Source of the DNA: Candidatus Caldarchaeum sp. | GTDB lineage: Archaea > Thermoproteota > Nitrososphaeria_A > Caldarchaeales > Caldarchaeaceae | Length of the DNA stretch: 64,000 bases | Assembly (NCBI GenBank): GCA_038885755.1 | Contig: JAVZZH010000003.1 | Coordinates: 64,001-128,000 of the forward strand | Reading direction: 5' to 3' | Shown: positions 22,697 to 39,399 of the stretch, one piece after another | Numbering within the stretch: the first letter of the stretch is position 1 | How the letters are laid out: each line of letters starts with the position of its first letter | Translations under genes and position numbers: made by a program | The notes under the pieces: generated by a model | The model's input: the letters and a program-made list of their open reading frames with translations, nothing else | The model's database searches: none | What the model was told of the DNA's origin: nothing

Positions 22697-22798
22697 ACTC
22701 GTCTATCCAACCAACAGCCCGAATTTAATGTTTCAAAAACACCAAAGCCGCGAAACGACGTTAAAAACCTTATAAACGCTGCAGAACCAGTGAAAAAC

Positions 22799-23665
22799 GT
22801 GTCTCTACGTGAGTTGATAGATTTAGTTGAGACGTTGAAAAGCCGTATCAAAAAACATCACGACGAGCTGCAAAAGAACGAGACACTAACCAGATATGTC
22901 TTGGTCGACCCGTTGCTCAGGGCTTTGGGATGGGACACGGAAAACCCGGAGCTGCTCGTCCCAGAGATGACCACGCAGTCAGGTAGGCCCGACTATACGC
23001 TGCTGCATAACGGACAGAAAATTGCTTTCGTCGGAGTAAAAGCACTCGGCAAGCCGGAAGACCTGATTAAGCAACTTTCTTACTGTGTAGCGGAAGGCGT
23101 TAGATATTTCATCGCAACAGATGGAGCAAAGTGGGAAGTTTATGACACACGGATTCAGAAACCTCTGGCGGAGAAACGCATAGCCGAGTGGGACATGGAA
23201 TCCATGGATGCGGGCGAGGTGGTTAGACGCGCTTTCTCCATAATGCGGCATGCAGGCGTGGGCATGCCTCCGCAAATCATCGAGTTTCCCAAACCTGAAG
23301 GAACTCCTCTATCACGGATAACTCCTAAACATCACGAAAAACTCAAGTTCACAAAAATAGTTTTTCCCGATGGGAAGAGCTTCGACCTCGAATATTGGAG
23401 AGACTTGTTGGTGGCTACGGTTGAATGGCTGTCCTCAACAGATAAACTCAAACCACCAGTCAAACTACCTCGCGGCTCTACCTACTTAGTGAACACCGAG
23501 CCAAAACACGCCGACGGCAGACGATTTTTAAGCATTAGACAGGTTGGAAACCTATTTGTCGAAACAAATTTCAACAACAAGGATATCGTGAAGCACACCA
23601 AATACCTGCTCCAACAACACGGAGTGGACGCCAACCACGTATTTCTGCACACCCAGAGTGAGTAG
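22799..23665 (+). CDS. HsdR_N-type PD-(D/E)xK nuclease domain fused to a SeqA-like C-terminal domain
   Basis: NETLTR..LVDPLLRALGWD...RPDY..; ATDG..W..YD; C-terminal WRDLL...FVETNFN..DI...LLQ..G; start set at GTG 22799. Confidence 0.7.
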   Translation: MSLRELIDLVETLKSRIKKHHDELQKNETLTRYVLVDPLLRALGWDTENPELLVPEMTTQSGRPDYTLLHNGQKIAFVGVKALGKPEDLIKQLSYCVAEGVRYFIATDGAKWEVYDTRIQKPLAEKRIAEWDMESMDAGEVVRRAFSIMRHAGVGMPPQIIEFPKPEGTPLSRITPKHHEKLKFTKIVFPDGKSFDLEYWRDLLVATVEWLSSTDKLKPPVKLPRGSTYLVNTEPKHADGRRFLSIRQVGNLFVETNFNNKDIVKHTKYLLQQHGVDANHVFLHTQSE

Positions 23666-24107
23666 CTCGGAAGGCCCCGCATCCCCACTATATAGAGTCT
23701 TCCCTGACGGAATACCAGCCTCTATTTCCCCAGCCTGCGTATGTCGTAGACTCTGAGGATGTCCCTGAACACGTCTGGGACCGAAGTCCTATCGCCACTA
23801 GGGCCGCCACGTCTCCGGCTGTTCGCCGCGGTATCTGGACTGGGTCTAGGTAGGCAGCATGGACGCCTTTTCCGATAGCAAGCCATGACGTGAAAGCCAT
23901 AAAATCTGTCTCAGACAAACTGGTAGCCATGAGCAGCGGGATAAAATCGCTGAAGGCGTTCACAGCAAGGTAATTATTTCAGCAGAGGTTATGAATCGTA
24001 TTTGGGTGTTGGTGGTAGAAATTCTGATTGCGAGCTATATAAAAGGCGTGCCAGTTTTAGATAATGTAAACTCATAGGTAAACGGTATTGCTGCTGTTTA
24101 CCTATGT

Positions 24108-24611
24108 TTAACGCGTTCTTTTGGGCTGGATACGCCATCGTGGTGAATGTTCCCGTCTGTAGAGGAGAAACTCCCGCTCAACCTGCATGACCTGCGTAGC
24201 AAAATTGTTTTTGTATGTTTTGTGCCTGGCTATAACTATGCCGACATCATTCCGGTCTGATGCTTCTCTTGTTTCTAAAATCTCTGTCACTACGTGTAAC
24301 GTGTCGCCGTCGAATACGGGGGCGAGCATTTTTAGGTCTCTAACCTCTATCTCCCGCGCAACATTCATAAAATCTTCGGAAGCGATGCCGTAAGTTATCC
24401 CAAGAACCATCGTCACGACAAGAAGCGGTTGTTTGAACTCTGTAAACTGCATGCATTCTCTGTCAAAATGGATGCTGGCTGTATTAAGTAATGTGTGGGA
24501 AAAAAATAAGTTATCCTGGAAGGTGACTGTTCTGCCTAGGCGATGAACTATGGTCTGCCCTGGCTTGACATCTTCGAAAAACAACCCAGCATAACCTGAA
24601 AACGCTTTCAA
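24108..24611 (-). CDS. MaoC-family (hotdog) dehydratase resembling the C-terminal half of mesaconyl-CoA hydratase
   Basis: GLFFED..GQ..H..GRTVT..DN....LLNTASIHFD; PVFDGDTL. Confidence 0.85.
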   Translation of the reverse strand: MKAFSGYAGLFFEDVKPGQTIVHRLGRTVTFQDNLFFSHTLLNTASIHFDRECMQFTEFKQPLLVVTMVLGITYGIASEDFMNVAREIEVRDLKMLAPVFDGDTLHVVTEILETREASDRNDVGIVIARHKTYKNNFATQVMQVEREFLLYRREHSPRWRIQPKRTR

Positions 24612-24613
24612 AG

Positions 24614-25138
24614 TTATGTCCCACGCACCTTCTTAAGATACTCCCGCCATGGAGAGCTGGACCGCTTGAAGACGAGGTTCGTCCTTTTTATCTCGCCAAC
24701 CAACTCGTTATTCTGATTGTAGCCACGATGCAGCCAAGTGACTATGCCCGCGTTGGGACGTGACCTTGATTCGCGGACGTCGATGACCTCTGTCTCAACA
24801 TACAGCGTGTCGCCGGGATATAGCTGCCTATGGATTCTCATGTAATCAGCCTGCAGGAAAGCCATTGTGTTCATGCTGCTGTCCTTAACACTCATAGCTA
24901 GCAGCGCGTTCAAAACGACCAGAGGATGTATGATGATTCTACCAGATTCCGCAACCTTCGCATATTCTTTATCGATGTACAGCGGTGTGCAGTCTCCCGT
25001 GAACGAAAGCCAGCTATAGTTGTCGTATTCCGTGAAAGTTCGGCCCGGCCATGAGATGATCTTCATACCGACTTTGAAGTCTTCGAAGTATGGCCCTTCG
25101 CCGTCCCATGGCGGAGCCTGCATCTCCTCCCCTGTCAT
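24614..25138 (-). CDS. MaoC-family (hotdog) dehydratase resembling the N-terminal half of mesaconyl-CoA hydratase
   Basis: GPYFEDFKVG..GRTFTEYDN; IHP; YPGDTL; RESRSRPNAGIVTW..G.NQ...RTNLV. Confidence 0.85.
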   Translation of the reverse strand: MTGEEMQAPPWDGEGPYFEDFKVGMKIISWPGRTFTEYDNYSWLSFTGDCTPLYIDKEYAKVAESGRIIIHPLVVLNALLAMSVKDSSMNTMAFLQADYMRIHRQLYPGDTLYVETEVIDVRESRSRPNAGIVTWLHRGYNQNNELVGEIKRTNLVFKRSSSPWREYLKKVRGT

Positions 25139-25142
25139 GTTT

Positions 25143-26360
25143 CTATACCTCTCCGTAAGACCTCGGCATCCCCAGAATGTTTGTGGCGACGAAGTTTAAC
25201 ACCATGTGAGGCGATATCTGTGCAAAGACAAGGAACTCGCTTCCACGCCACAGCCTCTCCACATCCATGTCGACTGAATATCCATACCCTCCAAGCGTCA
25301 GAACAGCTTCCCTACATGCAAGCGCACACGCCTCGGCTGCAGCATATTTTGCAGCATTTGAATAATAGCCGACCTGCTTAGGTTCTCCTCCGTTGTCGAT
25401 GAGCTCTAATGCCTTCCACTTCAGGGCATCAGCGGCCTCTAGCCTTATCCATGCATCGGCTAGGGGAAACTGAATGCCTTGATACTTAGCTATTGGGTCG
25501 GGAGGAAATACAACCCTTTGCATGGCGTATTCCACAGCTTTTTTGACAGCATACCTGCCCATGGAGACGCATTGTCCAGCAATGAGTGTACGCTCGACGT
25601 TAGCTCCTTCAAGCAGGTGGTAAAAGCCTCTCACCTCGTCGCCCAGCAAATGGTCAGCAGGCACTGCAAGCTCATCGATATACATCATGTTGGTGTCGAT
25701 GGGGCGTCTAACGTTATTAGGTATTTCCTCCACTTTAATCTCCTTCCCCAGGGAATTTCTGAGATCTACTAGGAACAGGGCTATTCCCTCAGTTTTCTTT
25801 TTCGCCTCCTCGTAGGGTATCACTCTGGCAGCTATAATTCCCAAATGCGAGTATCGAACTCTGGAGATGAAAGCTTTCTGACCGTTGATGATGTAGTAGT
25901 CTCCCTCGCGTCTGGCTATAGTCTTCATACATAGCGTGTTAAACCCGGTTTGAGGTTCTGTGACCGCAAAGACTTGGAACCTCAGCCGGCCTTTCGCCAC
26001 CTCAGGCAAATACTTGTGCTTAACCTCATCCTTTCCATACTTCACTAACATGTGGTTGTTGAAGAAACCTCCATGAATACTGTTCGAAGCCACTACACCT
26101 CCGGGGGAGGCAGCTATCTCCTCCAAGGTTATGTCAATCTCTGTCACACCGTAGCCAGAGCCCCCGTATTCCTCAGGGATGTTAACACCCATCAGCCCGT
26201 GTTTTTCGACTTCCTGGACGAATTCTAAGGGGAACCTCCTCTCTTCATCCATTTTCATCCAGTATCTAGAGCCATAGTTATTCATTATGGACTTGACGGT
26301 GTTCTTTGCAAGTTCTATAAACTCTTTTCTCTGCTTGTTGAGCCACCACACGGTCTTCAC
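25143..26360 (-). CDS. Acyl-CoA dehydrogenase
   Basis: IPEEYGGSG, FAVTEPQTG, INGQKAFIS, QGIQFPLAD, LGGYGY....VERLWR. Confidence 0.93.
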   Translation of the reverse strand: MKTVWWLNKQRKEFIELAKNTVKSIMNNYGSRYWMKMDEERRFPLEFVQEVEKHGLMGVNIPEEYGGSGYGVTEIDITLEEIAASPGGVVASNSIHGGFFNNHMLVKYGKDEVKHKYLPEVAKGRLRFQVFAVTEPQTGFNTLCMKTIARREGDYYIINGQKAFISRVRYSHLGIIAARVIPYEEAKKKTEGIALFLVDLRNSLGKEIKVEEIPNNVRRPIDTNMMYIDELAVPADHLLGDEVRGFYHLLEGANVERTLIAGQCVSMGRYAVKKAVEYAMQRVVFPPDPIAKYQGIQFPLADAWIRLEAADALKWKALELIDNGGEPKQVGYYSNAAKYAAAEACALACREAVLTLGGYGYSVDMDVERLWRGSEFLVFAQISPHMVLNFVATNILGMPRSYGEV

Positions 26361-26401
26361 TAGACATAGGGTTGGTAATATAGATTTTCGGACGCTGAGA
26401 A

Positions 26402-26884
26402 GGCACCGTCATTCAAGATGGTTGTTTAGCGTCTGCAAAGACCCGCCAGCCCCTCTACGTCCTAGTAGCCATCGACGCCTTTGACGAATGCCGGCTCCTT
26501 TATAGCCGCGAGCTGGGGTTCGGGAGGTTTATAGTGGTTTATGGGGCCGTAGGGTAATAATGTCTGGTTGGATATTGGTGTGGATTCTTGAGAGCTTTTG
26601 GCTCTGGAGGCGTCCCTTAGAAAGAGCTGTTTGAAAGCTATCAGGTTTCTGAAGAGTCCTTAAACAAACCTAGAGGGGCTGGACTGGATTGTGAGCTTCA
26701 GGGGTTTGCTATGAGGAACGGTGTTGAGATGTTCTTCAGATACCTGAAGGAGAGCACTACAAGCCTAGCGCCAAAAACTATATACAGAGGATAACAAACC
26801 TCAACCAATTCCTCAAACTCTTCGAACTCTACAACCAAACCATCTGAGACGGAGATGGCTAACCATGCTCATCCCGACAATACT
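26402..26884 (+). mobile_element. IS6-family transposase remnant(s)
   Basis: Fragments LYVLVAID, VWLDIGVDS*ELLAL, MRNGVEMFFRYLKE, ITNLNQFLKLF; right end 26868-26884 matches the TIR at 31184 in 13 of 17 positions. Confidence 0.7.
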
Positions 26885-26964
26885 CCTAACGCCTAAAGAA
26901 AAGCTCGAATAAGGTTGAAAGCGCTCGACGATGAAAGAGAATGTTCAGTCGTTCCAAAAGGTTC

Positions 26965-28431
26965 TCAGCCGTCCATTGCTTTTGTTTGAAGGAATCGTGC
27001 AAATGCATCCAAATCTACTGGTGCATGTCCTCCTCGTCTCCTGACCGCGGCCAGGTATTTGTACAGCTCGTCCCTGAAGTCTGGGTGGGCGCATCTTTCG
27101 ATTATAAGGCTCGCCCTGCTCAATGGCGACAGGCCCCGTAAGTCTGCCCATCCCTGTTCAGTTATAACGACGTCAACATCGTGGTCTGACACGTCGGTGT
27201 GAAGTGTGAAGGGCACTATCCTCGAAACCCTTCCGCTGGCTGCTGTTGATGGTAGGGCTACAATAGTCAGGTATGCTGCGCGTGTAAAGTCGCCGGAACC
27301 ACCCACACCGTTATGTATTTTCCCGTCTATGTGAGACACGTTTGTGTTGCCGTATAGATCGACTTCAAGAGCCTGTTGCACGCAGATGACTTGAAGCCTC
27401 GATATAACCTCCAAAGAGTTAGTTATCTCGTATGGTCTCACCACAATGTATGTGGAAAGTTTATCAAAGCTTTCGTAAAACTCGTTCCTAAACTTTTCCT
27501 CACCCTTCAAAGTGTATAAGCAGGCCGTGCTCATGCCGTTGACCTTTTCCGGAATAGTTAACGCCCACTTCACTGGAGCCACCTCGGTCCATACAGAGAC
27601 ATGCTTTTGCGGAAGCTCGTCAACAAACCTGCTTGCGAGGGGCCCTACCCCAGCCTGGATCACCATGTTCTCCCCCATTTCTGCAGAGCATTCTAGAAAC
27701 TCTATTATATTGCGTGCGATTTTTTCCTCAATCTTTGAAGGGGGCTGGTAAGCAGCTGCATACTCCTCCTCGGCCTCGCTGACCACTATAGATGCTATCT
27801 TCGACCTGGGAATCCTGAGGTGAGGTAGGCCTACACGGTCTCTCACATCCCGTATAGGGATCGGTGTACGTGGTTCTGGAACGTATATGTCGTGAACTCC
27901 GTGGAAAACTGGTTTCCGAACGTTTACCTCAACTATAACCATCTTAGCTGTGGTGACGATGGAGGGGATGCAGTCCAGCGAAAGCGAGGGTGTGATGTTG
28001 CCGTTTTCATCGATGTATGTAGCTTCTATAACCGCTATGTCTAAACCTCCACTAGGAATAACAGAACGTCTCACGAGCCGGCTGTACTCGGACAGCCAGC
28101 AGTCGGAAAATTCTATAATCCCCTGGTTAACCCTCTCCCTCATAACACCGCTTCCGGCTATGAGGTATCTTGTTCCTACGTTGGCCGCCGACATACACTC
28201 CTCAAAGCTGTTCGTGGTTGTCCCCGACACAAGAAGCGCTTTTATCTTAAGCCCTTCACCCTTTTCCTCAGATATCTCAGCTATGGCTTTAGGTATCTCT
28301 TTCGGCACAGCTGTTCCAGCCATTCCGGAGAACGCAACGCTTACACCGTCGTTGAAAAATTCTCTGACAGTGGTATACGCGTCCTTCACTTTGTTCCTCA
28401 ACTCTCTTTCTCTAATCCTGTCAAAAACCAT
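26965..28431 (-). CDS. Acetyl-CoA hydrolase/transferase family CoA transferase
   Basis: DIAVIEAT, QAGVG, ALEVDLYGNTN, GVGGSGDFTR, SRIVP, DVVITEQGWADLRGLSP, CAHPDFR. Confidence 0.92.
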   Translation of the reverse strand: MVFDRIRERELRNKVKDAYTTVREFFNDGVSVAFSGMAGTAVPKEIPKAIAEISEEKGEGLKIKALLVSGTTTNSFEECMSAANVGTRYLIAGSGVMRERVNQGIIEFSDCWLSEYSRLVRRSVIPSGGLDIAVIEATYIDENGNITPSLSLDCIPSIVTTAKMVIVEVNVRKPVFHGVHDIYVPEPRTPIPIRDVRDRVGLPHLRIPRSKIASIVVSEAEEEYAAAYQPPSKIEEKIARNIIEFLECSAEMGENMVIQAGVGPLASRFVDELPQKHVSVWTEVAPVKWALTIPEKVNGMSTACLYTLKGEEKFRNEFYESFDKLSTYIVVRPYEITNSLEVISRLQVICVQQALEVDLYGNTNVSHIDGKIHNGVGGSGDFTRAAYLTIVALPSTAASGRVSRIVPFTLHTDVSDHDVDVVITEQGWADLRGLSPLSRASLIIERCAHPDFRDELYKYLAAVRRRGGHAPVDLDAFARFLQTKAMDG

Positions 28432-28514
28432 GGAACATTCTTGGTGGTGTTTTCTCCCATTTAAATAGGTTTTTACACATTACGATGGGCCTGTCAACCA
28501 AGCTTTCTTTCAGG

Positions 28515-28675
28515 TTTAAGAGGGGTGCTGTCAAACCAGTAGTATACGCCCTTCCGTTTGGGTTATAGGTAGTATGTTGAGGGCTATTGGTGGTTATCTC
28601 TTCTATGCTCTAGAAGCATGGGTTAAGTAGTGCCTTTCACTAGGGTTCAAACAAGCAACGTTAAACCCTCTTAAA
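28515..28675. repeat. 10-bp inverted repeat (TTTAAGAGGG / CCCTCTTAAA) enclosing an IS-end-like GGTGCTGTCAA; possible MITE or IS scar
   Basis: Arms at 28515-28524 and 28666-28675 in a non-coding gap. Confidence 0.3.
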
Positions 28676-28814
28676 AGGACCATAGTTACGGGGTCTGAAG
28701 AGACAGTCCACGGTCCCAAGCTGCTTAAGCGTAATAGATTAAGGGCGGAAGGTTAAGAACCCCAACCTACTCACATTAAACAACCAGACGATAAAGAGCA
28801 GGAAGTGGTTAAAC

Positions 28815-29967
28815 ATGCTTATCTGGACATCCTCGTTGTTAAGAGGGAAATGCTCTTTCGCAGCCCTTTCACAACAGCCCTTGCTACCCTTAGTCAGCTC
28901 TGAACTTGGGCTGACTGCCGGCGGAGCAGGCCTGCTAATGTTTATGCTTTATCTAACTACGGCAGTAGCAGCACCCCCATCCGGATTTCTAACCGATAGA
29001 GTCAGGATGAAGTTTCTCGTGCCATTTTCAACCTGCATGCTTTCGTTAGTTTAGTGCTGCTGGCTTTCGTAAAAGATTTCCCTACCGCGGTTGCCGCCGT
29101 GTTAATCATGGGCATCGGTTATTCTATTTCCGGGCCTCTCAGCACTAAGATGGTTGCAATAAATTTTAAAAATAAGGAGAGAGCAACAGCTATAGGGTTT
29201 AAGCAGAGGGGGACGTCAAGCGGTAGCACTCTAGCAGCTCTAACTCTGCCGTCCATAGCTGTCGTTGCACAAAGTAGCTCAGCATTCATAGCGGTGATTG
29301 CTGCAGCAGCTATGCCGTTTATTCTTGTGAACTACGTACGTGCCAACAACCACGGGAGAGCTGAAGGTGAAAGTTATATGCTCAGAGCCGTGTTTGAATA
29401 AAGGAATATTTTCTTCCTGCTGAGCTCGTTTGGTTTAGGCTTTTCCATGTTCGTTATGTTGACACACTTACCTCTCTTTCTTACACATGATGTAGGTTTG
29501 AGCGTAGTCCAAACCGGATTCATGCTGGCCTTGGTTCAGTTTTTCAGCATTTTGGGTAGAATAGGTCTAGGTGTTTTAGCCGATAGGTTTTTCAGAAGAA
29601 CACGCATAGTGGTTCTCTTGCTGGTAGGCTTTATTGCCGCAATAGCTTCAACTGTTTTTCTTTTTCTGTTAAGCCTGAGATATGGATGGCTGTGGCTACG
29701 ATTGCCTTTCTCGGTTTCTTTCTCTTCAGAGCTATCGCTGTGGTGTTCACGGTTGGAGCAGAGCATGTCGGCACAACAAGCGGAATGACCTACTTTACCC
29801 TAGCTTTTGGGAATGCAGCCGACCCATTGGCATTCGGCCACGTTGCAGACATCGTAGGCCGCTGGGTTGCATGGCTGTTGTATGTGTTAGCGGTTTACCT
29901 CAGCTCCCTGGCCCTCTTTTTCGCATGGCTGTATCAGACAAAGCCTAGCATGCGATTTTCAACATAG
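28815..29967 (+). pseudogene. MFS transporter pseudogene
   Basis: Four consecutive ORF fragments with MFS motifs (GFLTDRV, KERATAIG, GRIGLGVLADRF, FGHVADIVG) broken by frameshifts and stops. Confidence 0.85.
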
Positions 29968-29986
29968 CCTTAAAGCAGATATCTGG

Positions 29987-30136
29987 CTAATAGAGCGGGA
30001 CCTCTGTTATCTCTTCAGCAGGCCACTTGCTTATAACTTCATAACCAGGTTTGGTGATTATTATCATGTCCTCTATTCTTACACCGTATCTGCCGTCAGA
30101 AGCGCAGCCGAGGGTTTCAAGGGCGATGGCCATGTT
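29987..30136 (-). pseudogene. C-terminal remnant of an M24 peptidase, paralog of 57000-58289
   Basis: NMAIALETLGCASDGRYGVRIEDMIIITKPGYEVISKWPAEEITEVPLY* versus NMAIALETLDCTPDAKSGVRIEDMIIVTESGHEVISKWPAEEVTEAPLF*. Confidence 0.85.
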
Positions 30137-30218
30137 GGTCGGCCTCACTTGTCAGGACTATTTTGAACCCTTCACCCGTCGTATGGTTGACATGTTGTTC
30201 TATCAATTTTCTTACTTA

Positions 30219-31127
30219 CTAGACATGTTTAGATATTTTTTCGTTCGCCAGCTTCCCGTAAGTGATCGCCACCGCCATTATATCAAAATCCCTCATACCC
30301 ATATGAGCTGTAGCTGTGAAGAGGTCTTTTGCCAGCGAACCTAATGGTGTCGGCACCTCTACATCCCTAGCTACCTCCATGGCCAGCCTCAAATCTTTAA
30401 CGGCGAGTTCTATGGTGGCGACTGGGCTCCATTCATCATCTATTATTTTCTGGGCCTTGTACTCCGTGACATAATTCTTGAAGACGGTGTTGTTGAATAC
30501 TTCGGTGAGTGTTTTGGGGTTGACGCCGAGCCTCGATGCTAGCACCACACATTCGGAGAACCCGGCCATGTTTATCCATAGATGGAGGTTGAGTATCAGC
30601 TTGATGGCTGTTCCAGCGCCTATATCACCCACATGAAGAATCTTCTGGCTAGTGGTCTGGAGGATAGGTGAGACGGCTTCAACTGACTCCTTCCTACCTG
30701 CAGCCAGTATGGTGAGCTTGGCCTGTTCAGCGATGAAGGCCCCACCAACAACCGGAGCCTCGACAAAGTCGCCACCCTTGGATCTGACCTTCTCAGCTAT
30801 CCTGCGGGCGACTAATGGATGATTGGTGCTCATATCCACAACGATCTTACCAGGTCCAACGCCGTCAAGAACAGATAGTCCCTTCATGTCTCCAGCCCCG
30901 GTCAACACGTTCTCAGTAACAGCGGGATCTGTCAGCATGCTTATCACGATAGGACATCTTTCCGCCACATCGCTCGGAGACTCAGCTACAACAGCACCAA
31001 ACTTAGCGAGTTCCTCAGCTTTGGAACGTGTTCTATTCCACACTATCAGTGGAAACCCACCCTTCAATATATTCCGGGCTATGCGGCCGCCCATCCGGCC
31101 CAACCCTATAAAACCTACATCAGGCAA
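30219..31127 (-). CDS. NAD(P)-dependent beta-hydroxyacid dehydrogenase family protein
   Basis: GFIGLGRMG, WNRT, DMST, EAPVVGG, catalytic KLILN, KDL. Confidence 0.92.
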   Translation of the reverse strand: MPDVGFIGLGRMGGRIARNILKGGFPLIVWNRTRSKAEELAKFGAVVAESPSDVAERCPIVISMLTDPAVTENVLTGAGDMKGLSVLDGVGPGKIVVDMSTNHPLVARRIAEKVRSKGGDFVEAPVVGGAFIAEQAKLTILAAGRKESVEAVSPILQTTSQKILHVGDIGAGTAIKLILNLHLWINMAGFSECVVLASRLGVNPKTLTEVFNNTVFKNYVTEYKAQKIIDDEWSPVATIELAVKDLRLAMEVARDVEVPTPLGSLAKDLFTATAHMGMRDFDIMAVAITYGKLANEKISKHV

Positions 31128-31183
31128 AACTGTTCAACCGGGTAGGCAGCTAGGTGTTTTTTAAACTTTCCACAACCATGTCC

Positions 31184-31533
31184 GGTAATGTCCGGATAAG
31201 CGTTTCCTGTTCTTAGTGTTTGGTGGTGTATAGTTTTCTCATCCCCTGTGCGTGGCTTGTGGCGCTGGGCTTGCCGTGGAGTACAGCCTTCCTCTCCTGA
31301 AGAGCCTCTCAACCCTGTTCCTAATACCGGGCCTCTGGTGTTCATACTCTATCCCAAGCCTCTGCAGAGCCCATGGATACCATGCACCCCTCCTACAGCC
31401 ACCGTGAAACATATACCCAAGAACCGCTAAAACCTCAACCCCACGGCTTTTTCGCTAGGCTTAAAACAACCCGAAGCAACATCCACACAGATAACATCCC
31501 GCCTCTAAACACACCTCTTATCAGGACACTATC
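31184..31533 (-). mobile_element. Internally deleted IS6-family element with both TIRs (350 bp)
   Basis: TIRs GGTAATGTCCGGATAAG (31184-31200) and CTTATCAGGACACTATC (31517-31533), complementary at 14 of 17 positions; internal WYPWALQRLGIEYEHQRPGIRNRVERLFR typical of archaeal IS6 transposases. Confidence 0.8.
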
Positions 31534-31568
31534 CTATGTCCAGCGCAAAAGGACCAATAAAACCAGCT

Positions 31569-31800
31569 TCATAGCTGCTTTTTGATGATGTGTTGGCCTC
31601 GCTCAAACAGCTTATTTATCAAGCCAACATGCTCAAAGTTCACAATACGTAGGTAAAGAACATGGGCCAGCATAGCTATTGTTACCATCAAACCCATCAC
31701 GACATACCGAACTCCTATGCTTGCGACTAACACGGACATTATTCTGGCTATTGCGTCGGCGCCCAATATGAATGAGACCCCGCCGGATGTCTCAATATCT
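31569..31800 (-). pseudogene. MarC-family membrane protein C-terminal remnant
   Basis: GADAIARIMSVLVASIGVRYVVMGL matches the MarC C-terminal RIMGLLLAAIAVQ motif; upstream part decayed. Confidence 0.55.
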
Positions 31801-32372
31801 CTATTAAAATACTGGCCTACTGTGTTTCATGCAAGTCGCTCTGTGGCCGTGGTAGTTGCTTCAGCCGGAAACTCATGTAGGGGTTTGTATGGTCTGGCGG
31901 TTAAGACTGTTGGCTTGCCTTGGTGGGCTGCCACAGAATATGTAATGAGCGTTAAAAATAGGGAGGGGCTGGCTCGGAACACCAGAAGGATGATGTCAAC
32001 GAAACCAGAGAGCAGCAGATGTGTATTGTAGTAGACAAGCAGATTATAGGATGGCAGTTATTCATCCATAACATCAAGTTATGCTGAACAGCTCTCCCTA
32101 GAATATATCATGTCTTAACTCCTCTGGCTCTTTTTCACATTAGTGTATGGAGGTCCTAGTAAGCGATGTGCCAACCCCCTGCTCTTCCCGGTGTAACCGC
32201 CAACACAATGTAATTCTGAGAACCGTCTCTACAAACTGCTTTTTGAGAGAATCCTTATTAAACAATTATTTCCCACCAAATGCAGTATTGCGATCGACTC
32301 CACAAAGATGTTGGCGTTTATAAAACAACTACATCAGCTAACACTTAAGTAGTCGCCGCCCCAGATGGCATC

Positions 32373-33299
32373 ATGAACAGCTATCAGAAGCTCAGAGTAG
32401 GGTTCATAGGGCTAGGTAAGATGGGTGTACACATGGCCGAAAATATCAAGGCATCTGGATTCCCCCTAACAGTCTGGAATAGGACGCGGGAGAAAGCCCA
32501 GTCATTCAGCAGCAGGACAGGGGCATCCATCGCCGAGACGCCGAAGGATCTAGCAGCTGAGAACGACGTTGTGGTCAACATGCTTACAGAGCCATGGATA
32601 ACCGAGGATGTGATACTGGGGACGGGTGAGATGAGGGGCAGGGCTGTCATCGATGGAATCAGTGAAGGAAAGGTGGTGATAGACATGAGTACAAATCATC
32701 CATCTTCTGTGAAAAGAATGGCCTCGGCGTTACGAGATGTAGGTGGAGCGTTCATCGATGCACCAGTTATGGGTGGACCTTTTGTGGCCTCCCAGAGAAA
32801 GCTCACGATTCTCGCAGCAGGCGATGAAAGGGTTTTAGAGAGGGTTCGTCCAGTACTTCTGAGTATGGGTCAGAAAGTTCTTCACGTCGGTGATGTGGGT
32901 GCTGGGATGACGGTTAAGCTGCTCCTCAATCTACATCTGTGGGTCATAATGGCTTCCTACGCGGAGTGTGTGGCTATCGGATCGAAACTCGGGATAAATC
33001 CCAGGAAACTCACAGAGATATTCAACAACACCGTCCTCAAGAACTATGTTACAGAGTTCAAGGCGAGAAAGCTTCTGGAGAATGACTGGAAGCCGGACGC
33101 CCACATTTCCATAGCCATGAAAGACCTACGCTTAGTCGCCGAAGTTGCCCTAGAGGCTGAAGCACCCATGCTGCTGGGCTCCATTACAAGAGACCTGTTC
33201 ACGGCGACAATGCAGCAGGGATTCGAAGACTATGACGTGATGGCGATAGCCCTCATGTACTCCAAGATGGCTGGCGTAGATCTCTCAGCCAAGGACTAG
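32373..33299 (+). CDS. NAD(P)-dependent beta-hydroxyacid dehydrogenase family protein (paralog of 30219-31127)
   Basis: GFIGLGKMG, DMSTNHP, DAPVMGG, KLLLNLHLW, FNNTVLKNYVTE. Confidence 0.92.
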   Translation: MNSYQKLRVGFIGLGKMGVHMAENIKASGFPLTVWNRTREKAQSFSSRTGASIAETPKDLAAENDVVVNMLTEPWITEDVILGTGEMRGRAVIDGISEGKVVIDMSTNHPSSVKRMASALRDVGGAFIDAPVMGGPFVASQRKLTILAAGDERVLERVRPVLLSMGQKVLHVGDVGAGMTVKLLLNLHLWVIMASYAECVAIGSKLGINPRKLTEIFNNTVLKNYVTEFKARKLLENDWKPDAHISIAMKDLRLVAEVALEAEAPMLLGSITRDLFTATMQQGFEDYDVMAIALMYSKMAGVDLSAKD

Positions 33300-34207
33300 G
33301 ATAGGAGTTTAGCTGTCTCGAATATTCGCTGGGCTATTCTTATCGTGGCGTCATCAACCATTATACCATCAACTGAAACTGCTCCCAACCCCTCGGCCAC
33401 AGCCCTTTCATAGGCTTCAACAATTTTCCTAGCCTTGTCAACCTCCTCCCTCGATGGTGTGTAAATCCTGTTGCAGGGTTCAATCTGGCTCGGATGTATG
33501 ACCCACTTCCCTTCAAATCCGAGACTCTTTGAGAGCCTAGCCGACTTCTCAAACCCCTCTAAGTCGGTGTACAGTGCGTAAGGCCCGTCTATCGCCTGCA
33601 GACCCGCAGCAGCCGACGCGTTCCTAATTGTGAAAAGTGGGTAATGCCATATATGGCCTGGATATTCCTCCACATGTCCCCCTATCACCAGAGACGACAT
33701 TCCTAAGCTGGCGGCATAGTCTCCCGGCCCGAAGATGAATGATTCAAGGCGCTGGCTGCTGAAGGCTATTTCACCACATCTTAGCAAGCCCTCAGCCGTC
33801 TCGATAATGGCTTCAAGCCCGATAGGCGACTCTATTCCATTCTCATCCTCAAGAACCTTCAGAGCCTTGTCGACAAGCACTATGTCAGCCGCCCTGTTGA
33901 CCTTAGGTACTATAACGCAGTCTATCTTACTGCCAACCCCGCTGATTATGTATTTGAGGTCGTCATACCAGAACCTCGTGTCCACTGCGTTAATTCTGAA
34001 GGCGATAGTTTTCCCTCGGGGCTTCTCAACATCTTTGAGAACCTCGACAACGTTGCGGCGGGCCACATCCTTATGCGAGTCGGGGACTGATGCCTCAAGG
34101 TCGAAGAACACCTCATCAGCTGCGGTCTCCATCAAACCCTTCCTCATCATCTTGGGACTGACGGCGGGTGTTGCCAGCTCGGTTCTCCTTAGCCTGCGGC
34201 GGGGCAT
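33296..34207 (-). CDS. CitE-superfamily CoA ester lyase, malyl-CoA/beta-methylmalyl-CoA lyase (Mcl)-like
   Basis: RINAVDTRFWYDD, PKV, IIETAEG, GPGDYAASLG, WHY, AIDGPY, GKWVIHPSQI, C-terminal MVDDA. Confidence 0.9.
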   Translation of the reverse strand: MPRRRLRRTELATPAVSPKMMRKGLMETAADEVFFDLEASVPDSHKDVARRNVVEVLKDVEKPRGKTIAFRINAVDTRFWYDDLKYIISGVGSKIDCVIVPKVNRAADIVLVDKALKVLEDENGIESPIGLEAIIETAEGLLRCGEIAFSSQRLESFIFGPGDYAASLGMSSLVIGGHVEEYPGHIWHYPLFTIRNASAAAGLQAIDGPYALYTDLEGFEKSARLSKSLGFEGKWVIHPSQIEPCNRIYTPSREEVDKARKIVEAYERAVAEGLGAVSVDGIMVDDATIRIAQRIFETAKLLS

Positions 34208-34254
34208 ATCAGCGGTCAGAATTCAGAGGATTATTTATGGGTTCGCAGAATAGG

Positions 34255-35950
34255 CTATCCACCTCATTCGGGCTTAGACGTGGGAGTGAACCACCTCTGC
34301 ACACTAAGGTCATCCAACAAGACGTTTACACAGTTTTATCCAAGCGCAAACGAAACACTCCCGCTAGGGTGTGAAGTTGATCCCGCAAGATAAAGACCAG
34401 CTGTGGGTGTCCGATAGTTTGAGAGCGGTGGATGGGACCTATTGATGCTCATCTGGTCTGGGATGTAGGCACCAAGGTGTACACTGCCCTCACCCATGCT
34501 GATGCTGTGTCAGAATGTGTCCAGAGTAGAGTATGATGTCTTAGCCAGTAACGAGGTCTTTGGATTTGGCGCATATTCAGACCAGACTCCCAGCAGATAG
34601 CCAACATATCTACCCTTCAACTCATCCCATACCCCTCCAGCGATTCGAAATGGTGCGCGGGGCGCCCAGAAGACCACACGCTGTCCCGCAGGAGCATATG
34701 AAGGGCCCAAAAACGTGTTGCATGTACTATTACCGGCCGGCTTCTCAGGGAGCTCCCCCTACTTCAGCTGTCTATGATTCGCTTCAAGCTTCCTCGAAAC
34801 TTCAACCCCAAAGTAGATGTTGAAGGTCTGGTTGATGAGGGGCCCGGTATTACTAGATGACGTGTAGTTGGGCGGCTCCCTAAGAGTTAGACGTAGAACA
34901 AGCAGACTCCATTTTCACACCATAGCCTTCTGCACGATTTCACTGTCCCAGCTCTCCTCACCTGCCATCCGAACTGTCTGCGGAAAATCAAAAACACTCA
35001 CCACTACCTTCCTATCCTCCACCACACTGCAGTCCGACAACACCCCTCCATAAGCCCCCGTCTTTGACGAAAATCCTATCTACATGCCGTCCAGTCCATA
35101 AACTCCCACCATTCTCCACGATCACTTTCTTGAAGGCTTTGGCAAGGTTTGTTGCCCCACCTTTAACGAGAAAGTGTGTTGATGAGAGCTTTGAGTCTTG
35201 TAAGGGCTCCGCCGGTCATCGGATCGTTGCCAGATTGGAAGCTATGTATTACCAGTTTGAGAAAAGTTCTAACCCTCTTATCTTCAAAATTCTCAGCCAC
35301 AGCATTATACATAGTCATCGTGCTGAACATGATGAACTCCTCACCGAGGTCGCCTTTTATTGTCTTTCTAAGGTCATCTAGTTGGGTTGGAGGATTATAG
35401 GACAGGGATGCTATCGCACTCCCCCTCATCCGGCTGAACTTTTCGTAGAGAGCCCTGTATGTCCGCGCATCCTTTTCAGAGGGTCTTGCCAGCGAACGTA
35501 CTGCGACGTCTATGTCCCCATGCAGGACAACGGCCGTTCCATCCTTGAGTGCGCCGCCAGTGTTGCAGTCAAGCATTATGGCTTGGACTCCATAGTGAGC
35601 CGGTTGGAGATCCCTGAATACCGGATTGTTGGTAAGGTTTACGAATAAGTTGGCGTGTGTGGCATGCTTGAACCCGGGAAGGGTTATCTCCTAAGTCCAA
35701 ACGCCACCCAGCAGAAGATTATGGAGAGTAGATGTTACGTATTCAAGGGCGAAGCCAATCTCCAGACCGGATACGTATAGCCTTTGGGGGATTCAGGATG
35801 TCGCCTAGGTATTTGGGGGGAATAGTGTTGACTGTCCCACATCACTATTCTATCTATGAGGAGGACGCTCGACCGGGATCTGGCGAGATACGCTGCTGCC
35901 GTTGAACCATCAGGCCCCTCGCCTATAACAATAAAGTGGGTGCACAGCCC
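34255..35950 (-). pseudogene. Phytoene dehydrogenase-like FAD oxidoreductase pseudogene
   Basis: Fragments IVIGEGPDGSTAAAYLAR, ITLPGFKH, PSYAPAGQ, YRTPTAGLYLAGSTSHPSG in different frames with stops. Confidence 0.8.
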
Positions 35951-36033
35951 GCTGAGTAACTGACTTCGTTTTTTGAGTTGTGTAGTTTCATGTCTGAGCA
36001 AGGTTTATTATCATTTTAGCCGCTGTCGAAGCC

Positions 36034-37080
36034 ATGCAAGAAATGCAGGTGATAGATATTTTCTGCCATATATTTCCAGCCGGCTTCATGCAGGAGCTTA
36101 AGAAAAGATGCCCGCATCTATCATTTAGGCAGGCTGGGGCTGGTAGTGCGTTGAATATTTTCAACGATCAGTCTGGTTACTGGGTGGCTTACGTAATCCC
36201 CGACTCGGCTTTTGATACTCCGGAGAAGCGTATAGAGGATATGGACAGGTATGGTGTCGACATACAGGTTTTGAGCGCCTCACTGCCCGGAGCTGAGCCA
36301 TCATCTCTGTCGGCAACCCCTGAGGACCTGATCAAGATTGCTAGATTTGTCAACGACGCGATAGCAGGAGTTGTAAGCAGGTATCCCGACCGTTTTTTAG
36401 GCGTGGCCGAGATACCTGCGACGGAGGAAGAGAGCGCCTTGGAGGAGTTTGACCGCGCCGTCAATGAGCTGGGTATGAAGGCTGTTCAGCTATATACACA
36501 GATGGGTGGGATGCCTATAGATAACGAGAGGTTCTACCCGTTGTTTGAAAGGGCTGTAAAATATGATTTACCGATACTCCTGCATCCTTCAAACCCGCCC
36601 CCGGCCCAGTCCAGAAGCTATGAAAAAGACTACTCACTCATGCTATTGTTCGGATGGCCATATGAAACAACACTGGCGCTCTCTAGGCTTGTGATATCGG
36701 GAGTCCTTGAGAAGTTTCCAAGACTGAAGATAGTTTCACATCACATGGGTGGGATGATAGCCTATTTCGGGGGGCGGCTTCAGATCTATGAGAACCTAGC
36801 CGCCGTGCGTGGCGTCAAGTATCCCAAGCCACTTCTTGAATATTTCAAAGCATTCTACGCCGACACGGTTCTGGGTGGGCACCTTCCCGCGGCCAAATGC
36901 GGGTACGAGGTTTTCGGCCCTGATCATATTGTATTCGCAACAGACTATCCATTCGGTCCTGAGATTGGCCGAGCTTTCATAAGGCAGGCCATAAACACAG
37001 TCAGAGAACTCAACATACCGGAGGAGGAACAGGCCAAGATATTCCACAAGAACGCACGCGAGCTTCTCAACATACATTAG
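36034..37080 (+). CDS. Amidohydrolase_2 family protein (ACMSD / aromatic decarboxylase-like)
   Basis: IDIFCH, RIEDMDRYGVDIQVLS, PILLHP, FGWPYET, HHMGG, FATDYPF. Confidence 0.9.
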   Translation: MQEMQVIDIFCHIFPAGFMQELKKRCPHLSFRQAGAGSALNIFNDQSGYWVAYVIPDSAFDTPEKRIEDMDRYGVDIQVLSASLPGAEPSSLSATPEDLIKIARFVNDAIAGVVSRYPDRFLGVAEIPATEEESALEEFDRAVNELGMKAVQLYTQMGGMPIDNERFYPLFERAVKYDLPILLHPSNPPPAQSRSYEKDYSLMLLFGWPYETTLALSRLVISGVLEKFPRLKIVSHHMGGMIAYFGGRLQIYENLAAVRGVKYPKPLLEYFKAFYADTVLGGHLPAAKCGYEVFGPDHIVFATDYPFGPEIGRAFIRQAINTVRELNIPEEEQAKIFHKNARELLNIH

Positions 37081-37850
37081 GTCATATCCTCATAGGCTTC
37101 TGACACTCGGCCGGATAGTCTATCAGCCCTCATAACGACGGGTTTTTTCCAAATCTATATCCGCCACCAATACCTCCTCCACATACCCCGCGTCCGCCAG
37201 AGTCTTCACAACCCCCACTCCCCCAGCGGTTTCCCTGACGGTTAGGATTGTGGAAAGGCCACCGTAGAGGTCCGGCAGGATAATGTTGGGAGCAACGAGC
37301 GGATCCTGTTCTCGAAGGCAGCGGACCTCAAGGTACCTTTTCCATGGAGCACAGCCATCCCTGACTATTCTAGATGGGTTGAAGGCTAGCTCAGCGCTCC
37401 TTAGGGCTAGGGTTCTCGCAGCCTCGGGATAGACTATATCATGGCATACCAGCCTTCACACCGTCCATATCAAAAACTTTGAATCGCTTACCATGTCTTA
37501 AGACCGTTTTCTCACCTCTGAAGAGATGAACCTTCTCCTGCAATCATGTCTCCATCAGGTGATATGATGGGGCAACCACACTTGGTCCGTCCCGCGAATA
37601 CAACCCACCTACCACAGCCCACACCTTGTTATTCGCTGCTGACTCCGAGAGTCTTCCCCAGATGATCTCATAGCTGGAGAGCATGGCATCTATGTAGGCC
37701 AGAGGAGTATGGTGAAACCAAGCCTCCGGTAGACAGACGACTGACACGCCTCCATCCCCCTGCTCACTTAACCGCTTTCTCCAGACTCTCCGAAACCGTT
37801 GAAGGTGTTAGCGGTACAGCCGCCACCCTAATACTCCGCATGAAGTTAAC
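37080..37850 (-). pseudogene. Carbon-nitrogen hydrolase (nitrilase superfamily) pseudogene
   Basis: VVCLPEAW, EKVHLF and LVCHDIVYPEAARTLAL (E-K-C triad motifs) split over frames. Confidence 0.78.
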
Positions 37851-38010
37851 CTCTAGCCAGCTTGGATAAGGATATGCAGGGAGCTTAGGAGGGAAGTTCC
37901 GGACAAGGATAAGATGGCGGGCAGCCAAGCGATCTTCCAGCTGGACATAGTATATGTGATAGCCAACCTACGGCTTGGTATACTAAACCCCTTCTAGGAC
38001 AAGCACATAC

Positions 38011-39399
38011 TCACGGTGCAGCACCACCAGCTACGCAGTGCTTGACTAACTCCCCCACGTCATCCAGCCTGTCAACATTCATGATTATGTCTATCAGCTC
38101 TTCGGCCACCTCATCGGTGACGACCAGCCGTGCATTGCTCCTAAACTTAGCCATTATGTCTATGAGAGCCGGGCTAGCTATATCGGATTTCTTGACGGTG
38201 TACCGGCTTCCGTCGACCATGACTATCTCAATAAGCTCCTTGTCCGGGCTATCAGCCCTCTGAAACCCTATCTTCCTAGATAGGAGGGCAACGTCTCTAT
38301 CTACACCGCCTTCTACATCAAAATCTCGAATGTTGGCCGAGCCTTTCACAAGCACTGTGGCGACCCCATAGGGTAGGCTGAACATCGCATCGTATCTGGT
38401 CTTCGGGTTCAGCTTTCTATCCGCCGGCAGACATATTATGGGTATGGCTAGCTCGCTGACGAAGCAGGTTGCCTCCCTGATGTCACGGTGGCTTATGCGG
38501 TGTTTCTTCTTAATTGCTAGAGCGGCGTGCATAAACTCATGTATGAGATGACAGTTGGGAAAGAGCTTGAACGAGATGTTCATGGTCTCCCACTCCCTTC
38601 CAAGGCCAGCCACCACCTCCTCAAAGCTGGGCCTGAAACCCGCATATGCAGCATATACCCCCCTATCACCCTCGAGTATCCGCGCCGGACCCGATAGTCC
38701 TTGGCCCGCTAGGAGGGCCGCCATAATACCTGCGTGGGCAGCCCAACCCACGTGTAGTGGTTTCACCCATGAACCGTCGGATAAAAACTCCATTAGCCCT
38801 GAGCTCATACTTCCCGCGATCCCCATAGCGCCTGATAGCTGAGCCTTACTATGGTCAAGCAGTTTTCCAGCAGCGAGGGAGCAGCCTAGGACACCGCATA
38901 CTGAAGTAGCGTGAAAGCCCTTCTCATGGAATTTGCCTCTGGAGGCCATGCCTATCCTAGAGTTCACCTCATATCCGGCGACTAGAGCCGTCATGACCTC
39001 AGCGCCTGAAGCGTGTATAGCTTCACCGAGGGATAGGACAGTAGATACCAGCGGTGAACTCAGGTGCATTATTGAGCCGAGGTGGGTGTCGTCATAGTCC
39101 AGCGCATGGGCCATGGAGCCGTTGGCCAGTGCGGCGATGGGGGCTGAGGCCCTGAAACCGTGCCACATAACGGTGCTTTCTCCGGAGCCGGCCGCCTTCT
39201 TCAGGGCTTCCGAGATGGATCGGGATCCAGGCTCCAGAGAACCTGCTGCAGAAACACCGATAGTATCCATTAGATGAAGCTTAGCCCTGGCAATCACCTC
39301 TTCTGGAATATCACTAAACCTTAGACCATCCACGAAGCATGCAAACTCCTCACTCATTGTGTGCAAATTAACACACAAGGCCACGTCTATATCACCCAT
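38011..39399 (-). CDS. MmgE/PrpD family protein
   Basis: ANGSMAHALDYDDTH, HLSS, GFHAT, KPLHVGWAA, FKLFPNCHLIH, FSLPY. Confidence 0.92.
   Translation of the reverse strand: MGDIDVALCVNLHTMSEEFACFVDGLRFSDIPEEVIARAKLHLMDTIGVSAAGSLEPGSRSISEALKKAAGSGESTVMWHGFRASAPIAALANGSMAHALDYDDTHLGSIMHLSSPLVSTVLSLGEAIHASGAEVMTALVAGYEVNSRIGMASRGKFHEKGFHATSVCGVLGCSLAAGKLLDHSKAQLSGAMGIAGSMSSGLMEFLSDGSWVKPLHVGWAAHAGIMAALLAGQGLSGPARILEGDRGVYAAYAGFRPSFEEVVAGLGREWETMNISFKLFPNCHLIHEFMHAALAIKKKHRISHRDIREATCFVSELAIPIICLPADRKLNPKTRYDAMFSLPYGVATVLVKGSANIRDFDVEGGVDRDVALLSRKIGFQRADSPDKELIEIVMVDGSRYTVKKSDIASPALIDIMAKFRSNARLVVTDEVAEELIDIIMNVDRLDDVGELVKHCVAGGAAP

Follow-up and report, generated by a model that had tools for sequence, protein, structure and literature searches.

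Gene Organization of the Locus

The DNA analysed here (hereafter, the window) is a stretch of 64,000 nucleotides from a hot-spring archaeon, Candidatus Caldarchaeum sp., positions 64,001 to 128,000 of contig JAVZZH010000003.1, and belongs to an assembly of 1.33 Mb in 10 contigs with a completeness of 86.5% (GCA_038885755.1). The analysis concerns a group of genes for acyl-CoA metabolism at 24108-39399, together with their neighbours elsewhere in the window, and above all two small MaoC genes proposed to encode a two-subunit hydratase. Four genes identified from open reading frames (ORFs) and Pfam domains are located on the minus strand and encode, in the direction of transcription, a family-I CoA transferase (AcetylCoA_hydro, YgfH/ScpC-like; P0004, 26965-28431, 488 amino acids), an acyl-CoA dehydrogenase (ACAD) with the three ACAD Pfam domains (P0005, 25143-26360, 405 amino acids), the upstream MaoC protein, UP (P0001, 24614-25138, 174 amino acids), and the downstream one, DN (P0002, 24108-24611, 167 amino acids). 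On the same strand lie the genes of an HpcH/CitE-type acyl-CoA lyase (P0003, 33296-34207, 303 amino acids; Pfam and Protein Data Bank (PDB) matches) and of an MmgE/PrpD-family protein (38011-39399; Pfam). Two beta-hydroxyacid dehydrogenases of the HIBADH family were also assigned by Pfam, HIBADH 1 on the minus strand (30219-31127) and HIBADH 2 on the plus strand (32373-33299), the latter convergent with the lyase gene and overlapping it by 4 nt. Transferase, ACAD, tandem MaoC genes, lyase and MmgE/PrpD gene are placed as the original prediction had described them, and the motifs that it quoted are found in the translations ('IIIHPL', 'SRSRPNAGIVTW' and 'KRTN' in UP, 'LLNTASIHF' in DN). The closest database relatives of UP, with 87% identity, are named Candidatus Caldarchaeum.

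Correspondence of the Two MaoC Proteins to the Halves of Mesaconyl-CoA Hydratase

The two MaoC genes had been predicted to represent the N- and C-terminal halves of a double-hot-dog mesaconyl-CoA hydratase (Mch). This claim is well supported by computation, since alignments to solved structures, fused orthologs, a domain tree and the residue pattern agree on it. In the alignments with the individual domains of solved Mch enzymes, UP falls on the N domain, with 49 versus 8 bits for the N and C domains of 4e3e and 37 versus 16 bits for those of 8hgn. DN falls on the C domain, best seen on 8hgn (42 bits, against 26 bits for the N domain), while both halves of 4e3e score alike with DN, 27 and 23 bits. 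Moreover, both proteins pass the gathering score of the Mch/MeaC family PF19315 (26.5 bits), UP with 82.7 and DN with 36.8 bits.

A HMMER search of 1.84 billion representatives yielded 1182 relatives of DN at E ≤0.001, 6 of them at ≤1e-30. The top match outside the cluster of DN itself was a fused protein of 352 amino acids, P0067, whose N half is 53% identical to UP and whose C half is 40% identical to DN. The corresponding values for a second fused protein, P0068 (331 amino acids; Sulfolobales archaeon according to NCBI), are 44% and 41%, and further fused orthologs carry the source names Metallosphaera and Vulcanisaeta. A tree of 116 hot-dog domains (IQ-TREE, quick mode) was built from all 37 two-domain proteins among the 150 matches listed and from 25 hand-picked single-domain relatives, the remaining single-domain matches being left out and none of the tips being experimentally named. 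In this tree 11 UP proteins cluster with the N halves of P0067 and P0068 (SH-aLRT 98), and 6 DN proteins cluster with their C halves (SH-aLRT 92). When 64 hydratase relatives were scanned with NCBIfam for named anchors, none reached an equivalog cut-off; the best score was 291 bits, versus 340, for RipB_Ich.

The pair resembles two known kinds of hydratase and differs from each. With the Mch/MeaC enzymes (Chloroflexus 4e3e, Methylorubrum 8hgn and Haloarcula Hah_1340) it has in common the N-type Ser/Arg, the C-type Asn/His and, presumably, an active site at the interface. Those enzymes, however, are single chains of about 350 amino acids in which a bridge joins two hot dogs, whereas the archaeal pair consists of two chains, of 174 and 167 amino acids and low identity to the solved enzymes, whose genes are separated by a stop codon in 7 of 7 loci. 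The RipB/Ich hydratases (single-domain proteins of about 175 amino acids forming homodimers) share with the archaeal pair their linkage to a CitE-type lyase and to a family-I CoA transferase. They carry both residue sets in one chain, and the whole set is retained in 20 of the 25 single-domain relatives, so that the homodimer holds two full sites; in the archaeal pair, in contrast, the residues are divided between two diverged paralogs, which together would form one full site. Neither protein belongs to RipB/Ich proper: both score under 340 bits, UP is devoid of the His and DN of Ser88 and Arg122.

A 340-amino-acid ORF at locus L036 spanning UP and DN was considered as a fusion and rejected: it is an open alternative frame, since tblastn assigns the two genes to separate frames and a stop codon terminates UP. 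Fused double hot dogs of about 350 amino acids with the reverse domain order are also found (P0070, P0073, P0076, P0078-P0080, P0088, P0095 and P0147). In these, Asn/His are located in the N domain (10 of 10) and Arg122, Arg127 and Arg152 in the C domain (9 of 10 each); a member with the source name Legionella carries the JGI label itaconyl-CoA hydratase. The residue pattern and the domain tree suggest that hot-dog fusion arose independently, more than once and in both orders. Among bacterial stand-alone proteins, P0033, P0045 and P0060 are of the His-less N type and cluster with Mch-like N halves, P0075 clusters with a fused C half, and P0100 has C-type residues (without Ser/Arg) and a tree position that is not resolved. 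Two-gene Mch-like hydratases may thus occur in bacteria too.

A Putative Composite Active Site

In the Methylorubrum enzyme (MeMeaC, 8hgn), the structural report places the active site between the two domains, where Ser79 and Arg142 of the N domain hold the malate carboxylate, Lys113 holds the CoA phosphate, and Asn226 and His231 of the C domain form the catalytic pair (PMC10164722). In our alignment Ser79, Arg142 and Lys113 are equivalent to Ser88, Arg152 and Arg122 of UP, and Asn226 and His231 to Asn43 and His48 of DN. Ser88/Arg152 of the N type are therefore present in UP and Asn43/His48 of the C type in DN, as in the two domains of Mch. The partition is maintained among the orthologs. Those of UP keep Ser/Thr88, Arg122, Arg127 and Arg152 (11 of 11 each) and have Asp/Tyr at the positions of the catalytic pair, with Tyr replacing His in all 11. 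Those of DN have both Asn and His in 6 of 6, Ser88 in none (Lys or Met in 6 of 6) and Arg122 in 2 of 6. Such complementary residues are the pattern expected if a two-site homodimer had been duplicated into a one-site heterodimer.

The two genes are closely apposed: of 7 loci, 4 have a 4-nt overlap of the UP stop codon with the DN start codon (ATGA or GTGA), and the other 3 have a spacing of 0-2 nt. The prediction of a UP-DN complex gave a score of 0.75 (best control, 0.00), reached by 51 of 78 solved complexes and by 2 of 108 mismatched pairs; because hot-dog dimers are common among solved structures, this score denotes likeness only and does not tell a heterodimer apart from homodimers. Contacts agreed between runs by at least 96%, the partner pLDDT was at least 88, and the predicted interface takes in residues 40-47 of DN and 88-89 of UP.

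We propose that UP and DN assemble into one heterodimeric (R)-specific enoyl-CoA hydratase, a member of the Mch / RipB-Ich family in which both subunits contribute to a single composite site. DN, the proposed equivalent of the Mch C-terminal domain, would be the catalytic subunit and provide Asn43 and His48. UP, which has Tyr for His, would be a non-catalytic substrate/CoA-binding subunit equivalent to the Mch N-terminal domain, and would provide Ser88, Arg152 and Arg122 for the substrate carboxylate and the CoA phosphate. Pairs of one catalytic and one non-catalytic hot-dog subunit sharing one active site are known in the mycobacterial ChsH1-ChsH2 and HadAB/HadBC; these belong to other branches of the superfamily, have lipids or steroids as substrates and are not known to be linked to a CitE-type lyase. 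Of these heteromeric hydratases, 4WNB is mentioned in PMC10164722.

Conservation of the Cluster

Nine hydratase loci were compared, from 8 genomes of a 401-genome sample of the phylum plus locus L003; a scan of species genomes gave 11 loci. An ACAD and a family-I CoA transferase adjoin the hydratase in 6 of the nine and a CitE-type lyase lies within 10 kb of it in 4, an association of genes that exceeds chance. Close DN orthologs (63-100% identity) are present in 6 of the 401 genomes (G000, G058, G237, G180, G187 and G344), the genus accounting for three of them (G000, G058 and G237, 3 of its 12 genomes), and fused forms of the hydratase in 2 (G115 and G343). With so few and scattered carriers, the distribution is patchy. 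A compact operon in the order ACAD-UP-DN-lyase-(PrpD)-CoA transferase is found at L002, titled as a metagenome-assembled genome (MAG) of Methanomethylicia, and at L003, a crenarchaeote single-cell assembly; an operon made up of a fused hydratase, a CoA transferase and an ACAD occurs at L033 (G343). In bacterial loci a lone MaoC gene of 150 amino acids stands beside a CitE-type lyase, and P0071 is a natural fusion of 658 amino acids that joins a RipC/Ccl-like lyase to two hot-dog domains.

The same-genus relatives have a longer cluster. At L001 (G058) and L004 (G237) the order is major facilitator superfamily (MFS) transporter, CoA transferase, Peripla_BP_6 binding protein, ACAD, UP and DN, followed by the large subunit (588 amino acids) of a mutase of the methylmalonyl-CoA mutase (MCM) family, a B12-binding small subunit and a class-I CoA transferase A/B pair. 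L001 also has an Mcl-like lyase, 3.4 kb upstream of its CoA transferase, as well as an IS240 transposase that separates the binding-protein gene from that of the ACAD. L004 gave no CitE-type match; the lyase ortholog of G237 is on another contig. The UP gene of G237 aligns in two frames (L004:10001-10517), interrupted near codon 52 by what is either a frameshift or a MAG sequencing error.

The mutase genes directly 3' of the hydratase (L001:11176-13366 and L004:11096-13172) are overall nearest to 2-hydroxyisobutyryl-CoA mutase (4r3u; 510 bits, versus 409 for human MCM). Both have Tyr ('RQYAGYG') and Arg ('ARNAF') at positions occupied in HcmA by Ile and Gln; we take these to be the carboxylate-binding pair of methylmalonyl-CoA mutase and other dicarboxylyl-CoA mutases. 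MCM-family genes number 2 in G058 and 3 in G237, while they are missing from two genomes of the genus that are 99% complete and do not have the cluster; the cluster mutase is an extra paralog. A look-up in the ESM Atlas returned for it only the generic names 'acyl-CoA mutase / methylmalonyl-CoA mutase'.

Outside the archaea, locus L009 of Caballeronia calidae contains genes for LysR, Amidohydro_2, HIBADH, CoA_transf_3, ACAD, BKACE, MaoC, CitE, alpha/beta hydrolase, MmgE/PrpD and SDR proteins. Six protein families are common to this locus and the neighbourhood in the window, the ACADs being 39.6% identical.

Proposed Partner Enzymes

The ACAD P0005 is 66-88% identical to the hydratase-adjacent ACADs of L001-L004, and its ACAD domains begin at residue 18. 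The methylsuccinyl-CoA dehydrogenase (Mcd) of the ethylmalonyl-CoA pathway is described in PMC5798300 as a 60-kDa subunit with an N-terminal extension of about 170 residues and an arginine cluster; P0005, of standard length and devoid of the extension, is not of this type. The transferase P0004 scores 369 bits with the NCBIfam model TIGR03458 and 351 bits with ScpC, both under the cut-offs, and its homologs (41-84% identity) adjoin the hydratase in L001-L004 and L033.

The lyase had been predicted to be Mcl-like, and its best solved relatives bear this out: 5ugr, a malyl-CoA/beta-methylmalyl-CoA lyase (Mcl), with 215 bits, 4l9y with 194 and 4l7z with 145, compared with 101 bits for RipC (3qll), 91 for the acyl-CoA lyase beta chains 8khl/9nzb, 75 for CLYBL and 68 for mycobacterial CitE. 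Judged by these scores, characterised Mcl is a nearer relative of P0003 than are Ccl, RipC or CitE; with the NCBIfam model Halo-Mcl P0003 has 130 bits against a cut-off of 500. It is the sole full-length HpcH_HpaI lyase of the source genome, a truncated copy being present on contig C1. CitE-type genes occur in 108 of the 401 Thermoproteota genomes and in 5 of 5 hydratase-bearing genomes tested; with such a spread, the mere presence of one is uninformative.

The MmgE/PrpD protein has as best solved relatives cis-aconitate decarboxylase (139 bits) and IDS epimerase (133 bits), and homologs with 37-40% identity are located inside the operon of L002 and L003. A role as 2-methylcitrate dehydratase in the disposal of propionyl-CoA was rejected on these relatives and on a score of 35 bits with the NCBIfam PrpD model NF042438, whose cut-off is 950. 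The protein may work on a C4-dicarboxylate backbone, as an isomerase or as a decarboxylase. HIBADH 1 scores 205 bits with the NCBIfam 2-hydroxy-3-oxopropionate reductase (cut-off 397), and a homolog with 66% identity directly follows the lyase in L001; it would be a candidate glyoxylate or tartronate-semialdehyde reductase.

Proposed Pathway and Its Alternatives

Starting from the computed domain correspondence, residue pattern, gene linkage and predicted binding of the subunits, we consider it probable that the two-subunit hydratase of Mch/RipB-Ich type, the ACAD and the transferase process a short dicarboxylic acid, and that the Mcl-like lyase cleaves the product. In this model, whose substrates are throughout those that we infer, the transferase would turn a short (C4-C6) dicarboxylic acid into its CoA ester. 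The co-transcribed ACAD would oxidise the ester to an enoyl-CoA, with mesaconyl-CoA as the best guess and electron transfer flavoprotein (ETF), genes for which occur in the source genome, as the presumed electron acceptor. The hydratase would then hydrate the enoyl-CoA, and the lyase would cleave the resulting hydroxyacyl-CoA. A C5-dicarboxylate is a plausible assignment, and the Mcl-like lyase and the Tyr/Arg pair of the mutase in L001 and L004 hint at a dicarboxylate. Within the model, cleavage of beta-methylmalyl-CoA to propionyl-CoA and glyoxylate (the C1 route) is put forward tentatively; it is favoured by the MCM-family mutase that directly follows the hydratase in the same-genus relatives, by the Tyr/Arg pair of this mutase and by its being an extra paralog. 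Cleavage of (S)-citramalyl-CoA to acetyl-CoA and pyruvate (the C4 route) would be a weaker candidate, and some other dicarboxylyl-CoA takes the remaining probability, which is no smaller. In keeping with the C1 route, malate synthase is present and could take up glyoxylate; the search for glyoxylate carboligase gave no match above the cut-off (295 versus 711 bits).

The original prediction had drawn a scheme from methylsuccinate to propionyl-CoA and glyoxylate. Its split hydratase and Mcl-like lyase stand, while its dehydrogenase step does not, the ACAD not being of the Mcd type. [quoted passage not shown]

Several observations weigh against the model as a whole. None of the cluster proteins reaches an NCBIfam equivalog cut-off. 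With the Halo Mch model NF041625 (cut-off 560) UP has 86 and DN 38 bits, and the best NCBIfam match of both is RipB_Ich, NF038241 (cut-off 340), with 98 bits for UP and 95 for DN. P0005 has generic ACAD matches only, with no recognisable dicarboxylate signature. The specificity of the CitE family is broad and not reliably callable from sequence, according to PMC6689899. P0003 and the transferase are separated by 4.9 kb that hold a broken transporter, an insertion sequence (IS) fragment and other genes, and close orthologs of P0003 (54-89% identity) are present in 5 genomes of family f1 without UP or DN; therefore, the lyase does not depend on this hydratase. Conversely, the hydratase has no ACAD or transferase neighbour in 3 of the 9 loci (G115, G180 and G187). 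The literature search found no enzymology for any member of this archaeal hydratase group. Finally, the transporter pseudogene and the absence of genes found in the relatives suggest that the pathway may be impaired in this strain.

A further reading, which we hold to be doubtful, makes of the L001 and L004 clusters an archaeal equivalent of the lower ethylmalonyl-CoA pathway (Ecm-Mcd-Mch-Mcl1) assembled from non-orthologous parts, of which the window would hold a decaying remnant. A diverged MCM-family mutase would interconvert ethylmalonyl- and methylsuccinyl-CoA, the standard-length ACAD would replace Mcd, and the two-subunit Mch with the Mcl-like lyase would yield propionyl-CoA and glyoxylate. 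Mutase, ACAD and Mch-type hydratase are indeed joined in both clusters, and L001 has the Mcl-like lyase as well; the differences are an ACAD without the Mcd extension and a mutase absent from the source genome. In addition, crotonyl-CoA carboxylase/reductase (Ccr; TIGR01751) was found above its cut-off in none of five genomes (G000, G058, G237, G344 and G343), so the complete ethylmalonyl-CoA pathway is not present, and the non-orthologous route would catabolise C5 dicarboxylates rather than assimilate acetate. The data would also allow a bolder variant running from succinyl-CoA through fumaryl-CoA and L-malyl-CoA to acetyl-CoA and glyoxylate.

Alternatively, though we think it unlikely, the module could correspond, in archaea, to the cluster with which bacteria degrade itaconate or methylsuccinate (Ict, Mcd-C4, Ich, Ccl, Msi), with C4 esterification of methylsuccinate or itaconate, formation of mesaconyl-C4-CoA and (S)-citramalyl-CoA, release of acetyl-CoA and pyruvate, and MmgE/PrpD as methylsuccinate isomerase. 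The five protein families of that cluster (PMC12290011) all lie within 15 kb in the window and in one operon in L002 and L003, and the logic of CoA transfer, desaturation, hydration and cleavage would be shared. The bacterial ACAD is described there as being of standard length and making mesaconyl-C4-CoA, and the MmgE/PrpD protein as a methylsuccinate isomerase; P0005 likewise has ordinary length without the Mcd extension. P0005 is also more similar to the L009 ACAD (39.6% identity) than to the paralogs of its own genome (≤35.5%), DN scores higher on RipB_Ich than on Halo Mch, and some Mcl enzymes also cleave citramalyl-CoA, the Chloroflexus lyase being called trifunctional (PMC5592240). However, P0003 is Mcl-like rather than Ccl-like, much closer to Mcl than to RipC or the Ccl-type chains, and the transferase is of family I and not family III. 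The hydratase is two-subunit, and the MmgE/PrpD protein is distant, just 25% identical to that of L009. In the published survey methylsuccinate isomerases are assigned to 2 archaea, both Thermoplasmatales, and to no Thermoproteota (PMC12290011), and the B12 mutase that the relatives add next to the hydratase in L001 and L004 would have no role in such a route.

Two further routes were considered. In a leucine/isovalerate route of the Mycobacterium tuberculosis kind, whose operon is reportedly so composed, the ACAD would be an isovaleryl-CoA dehydrogenase, a RipB-type hydratase would convert 3-methylglutaconyl-CoA to (R)-3-hydroxy-3-methylglutaryl-CoA (HMG-CoA), and a CitE-type lyase would split this into acetyl-CoA and acetoacetate. 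A class-I CoA transferase A/B pair and a Leu/Ile/Val (LIV)-type binding protein in the operon of the relatives would fit, as would the E1 alpha/beta genes (43160-45190) and a LIV-type ABC transporter (48694-53460) in the window. Yet no carboxylase lies in or near any archaeal cluster, the single carboxyltransferase of the genome is on another contig, and P0003 is nearer to Mcl than to mycobacterial CitE; we deem this route very improbable. Equally little credence can be given to a monocarboxylate route (valine, isobutyrate or propionate), in which the MaoC pair would be a generic (R)-hydratase with the lyase and PrpD protein as unrelated neighbours, and desaturation and hydration to a 3-hydroxyacyl-CoA would be followed by removal of CoA by the transferase and oxidation by HIBADH and aldehyde dehydrogenase. 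The window does contain a third HIBADH-family gene (59634-60755), an aldehyde dehydrogenase gene (39728-41236), and the E1 and transporter genes already mentioned, the top NCBIfam match of the ACAD is acryloyl-CoA reductase (181 bits), and the MCM-family mutase of the relatives could carry propionyl-CoA onward. Against it, as against the leucine route, both MaoC proteins belong to the Mch / RipB-Ich group, the Ser and Arg that contact a carboxylate in solved Mch are retained in UP, and a CitE-type lyase is directly adjacent to the hydratase in L002 and L003 and fused to one in P0071; in addition, the aldehyde dehydrogenase of the monocarboxylate route has 273 bits, versus a cut-off of 448, with the model for the CoA-acylating methylmalonate-semialdehyde enzyme.

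Implications of a Two-Gene Hydratase

The metabolism of branched C5-dicarboxylates (mesaconate, methylsuccinate and itaconate) has already been worked out in bacteria and haloarchaea. The literature search found no report of it for Aigarchaeota/Caldarchaeales or Sulfolobales; neither this archaeal cluster nor a hydratase of Mch/Ich type with two subunits turned up in it. The two-gene hydratase would stand as an intermediate between the homodimeric RipB type, with two full sites, and the fused Mch type, with one, its catalytic and binding residues being cleanly partitioned between the two chains. Since fused orthologs are present in cultured Metallosphaera and Vulcanisaeta, the function is testable in tractable thermophiles and with thermostable enzymes; thermostable versions would be of practical interest for synthetic CO2-fixation and dicarboxylate pathways, which already use Mch, Mcd and Mcl. 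The interest of the cluster as a whole is tempered by the decay of the copy in the window.

Decay of the Cluster in the Window

The window holds a reduced and partly pseudogenised version of the cluster of the relatives. It is devoid of the binding protein, mutase, B12 subunit and class-I A/B transferase of L001 and L004, and tblastn found no mutase anywhere in the source assembly. The MFS transporter is a pseudogene on the plus strand (28743-29964) in at least 3 frames, with MFS_1 matches on three separate frames and three tblastn pieces that are 63-77% identical to the intact MFS of L001. It is followed by a remnant of an M24 peptidase consisting of the last 49 codons only (29990-30136). A rearrangement scar is formed by an IS-type repeat fragment (31189-31546), identified by repeat identity, which over 369 bases has 95% identity to C1:163417-163785 in the same genome, a segment that in turn matches the IS240-type transposase of L001; at this fragment the metagenome depth is doubled and contigs are broken.

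Contigs from the DNA runs X1 and X5 reproduce 23593-31218 without difference, the MFS region included, so that an error peculiar to this assembly does not account for the frameshifts; the two runs may, however, be its source. Contigs of the RNA library X7 are identical to the window at 24746-25161 (UP and the start of the ACAD), 26118-26327, 27322-27766 and 27999-28420, a weak hint that the intact genes are transcribed. No X7 contig covers 23803-24403 (most of DN) or the MFS pseudogene, a lack of cover that is no evidence. Run X8, with a small share of words, was used for no conclusion.

The original prediction had also counted a glyoxalase pseudogene with the module. A frameshifted VOC-type pseudogene with weak Pfam Glyoxalase matches (E 0.003 and 0.085) does exist on the plus strand, but at 55750-56221, 16 kb beyond the range in which it had been placed; no glyoxalase Pfam match lies within 24108-39399. 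An Amidohydro_2 protein (36034-37080, plus strand; Pfam), whose link to the module is uncertain, belongs to a family that also has a member in L009, within the ACAD-MaoC-CitE-PrpD cluster, and a fragmentary one in L003. Further broken genes, all of the minus strand, resemble an FAD/NAD-binding oxidoreductase in several frames (34339-36004), a carbon-nitrogen hydrolase (37126-37967), another family-I CoA transferase, split into two pieces with 38-41% identity to P0004 (45243-46067), and a fragment of an alpha/beta-hydrolase (56381-56758).

Just downstream of DN, where the relatives have the mutase, the region 22000-23600 shows a metagenome depth of 46-182, versus 11-24 over the cluster, and many variant letters; an HSDR_N-like ORF is located at 22499-23665, and contigs of two runs begin at 23593. 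The region looks like a strain-variable or multi-copy junction. The G+C content is 0.47-0.53 over 22-52 kb, versus 0.53-0.58 in the first 22 kb of the window. On contig C1, positions 159480-163790 hold a decayed partial second copy of the segment with MFS, M24 peptidase, HIBADH and lyase, in which the lyase piece is 78% identical over residues 164-297 and adjoins the same IS fragment as at 31189-31546.

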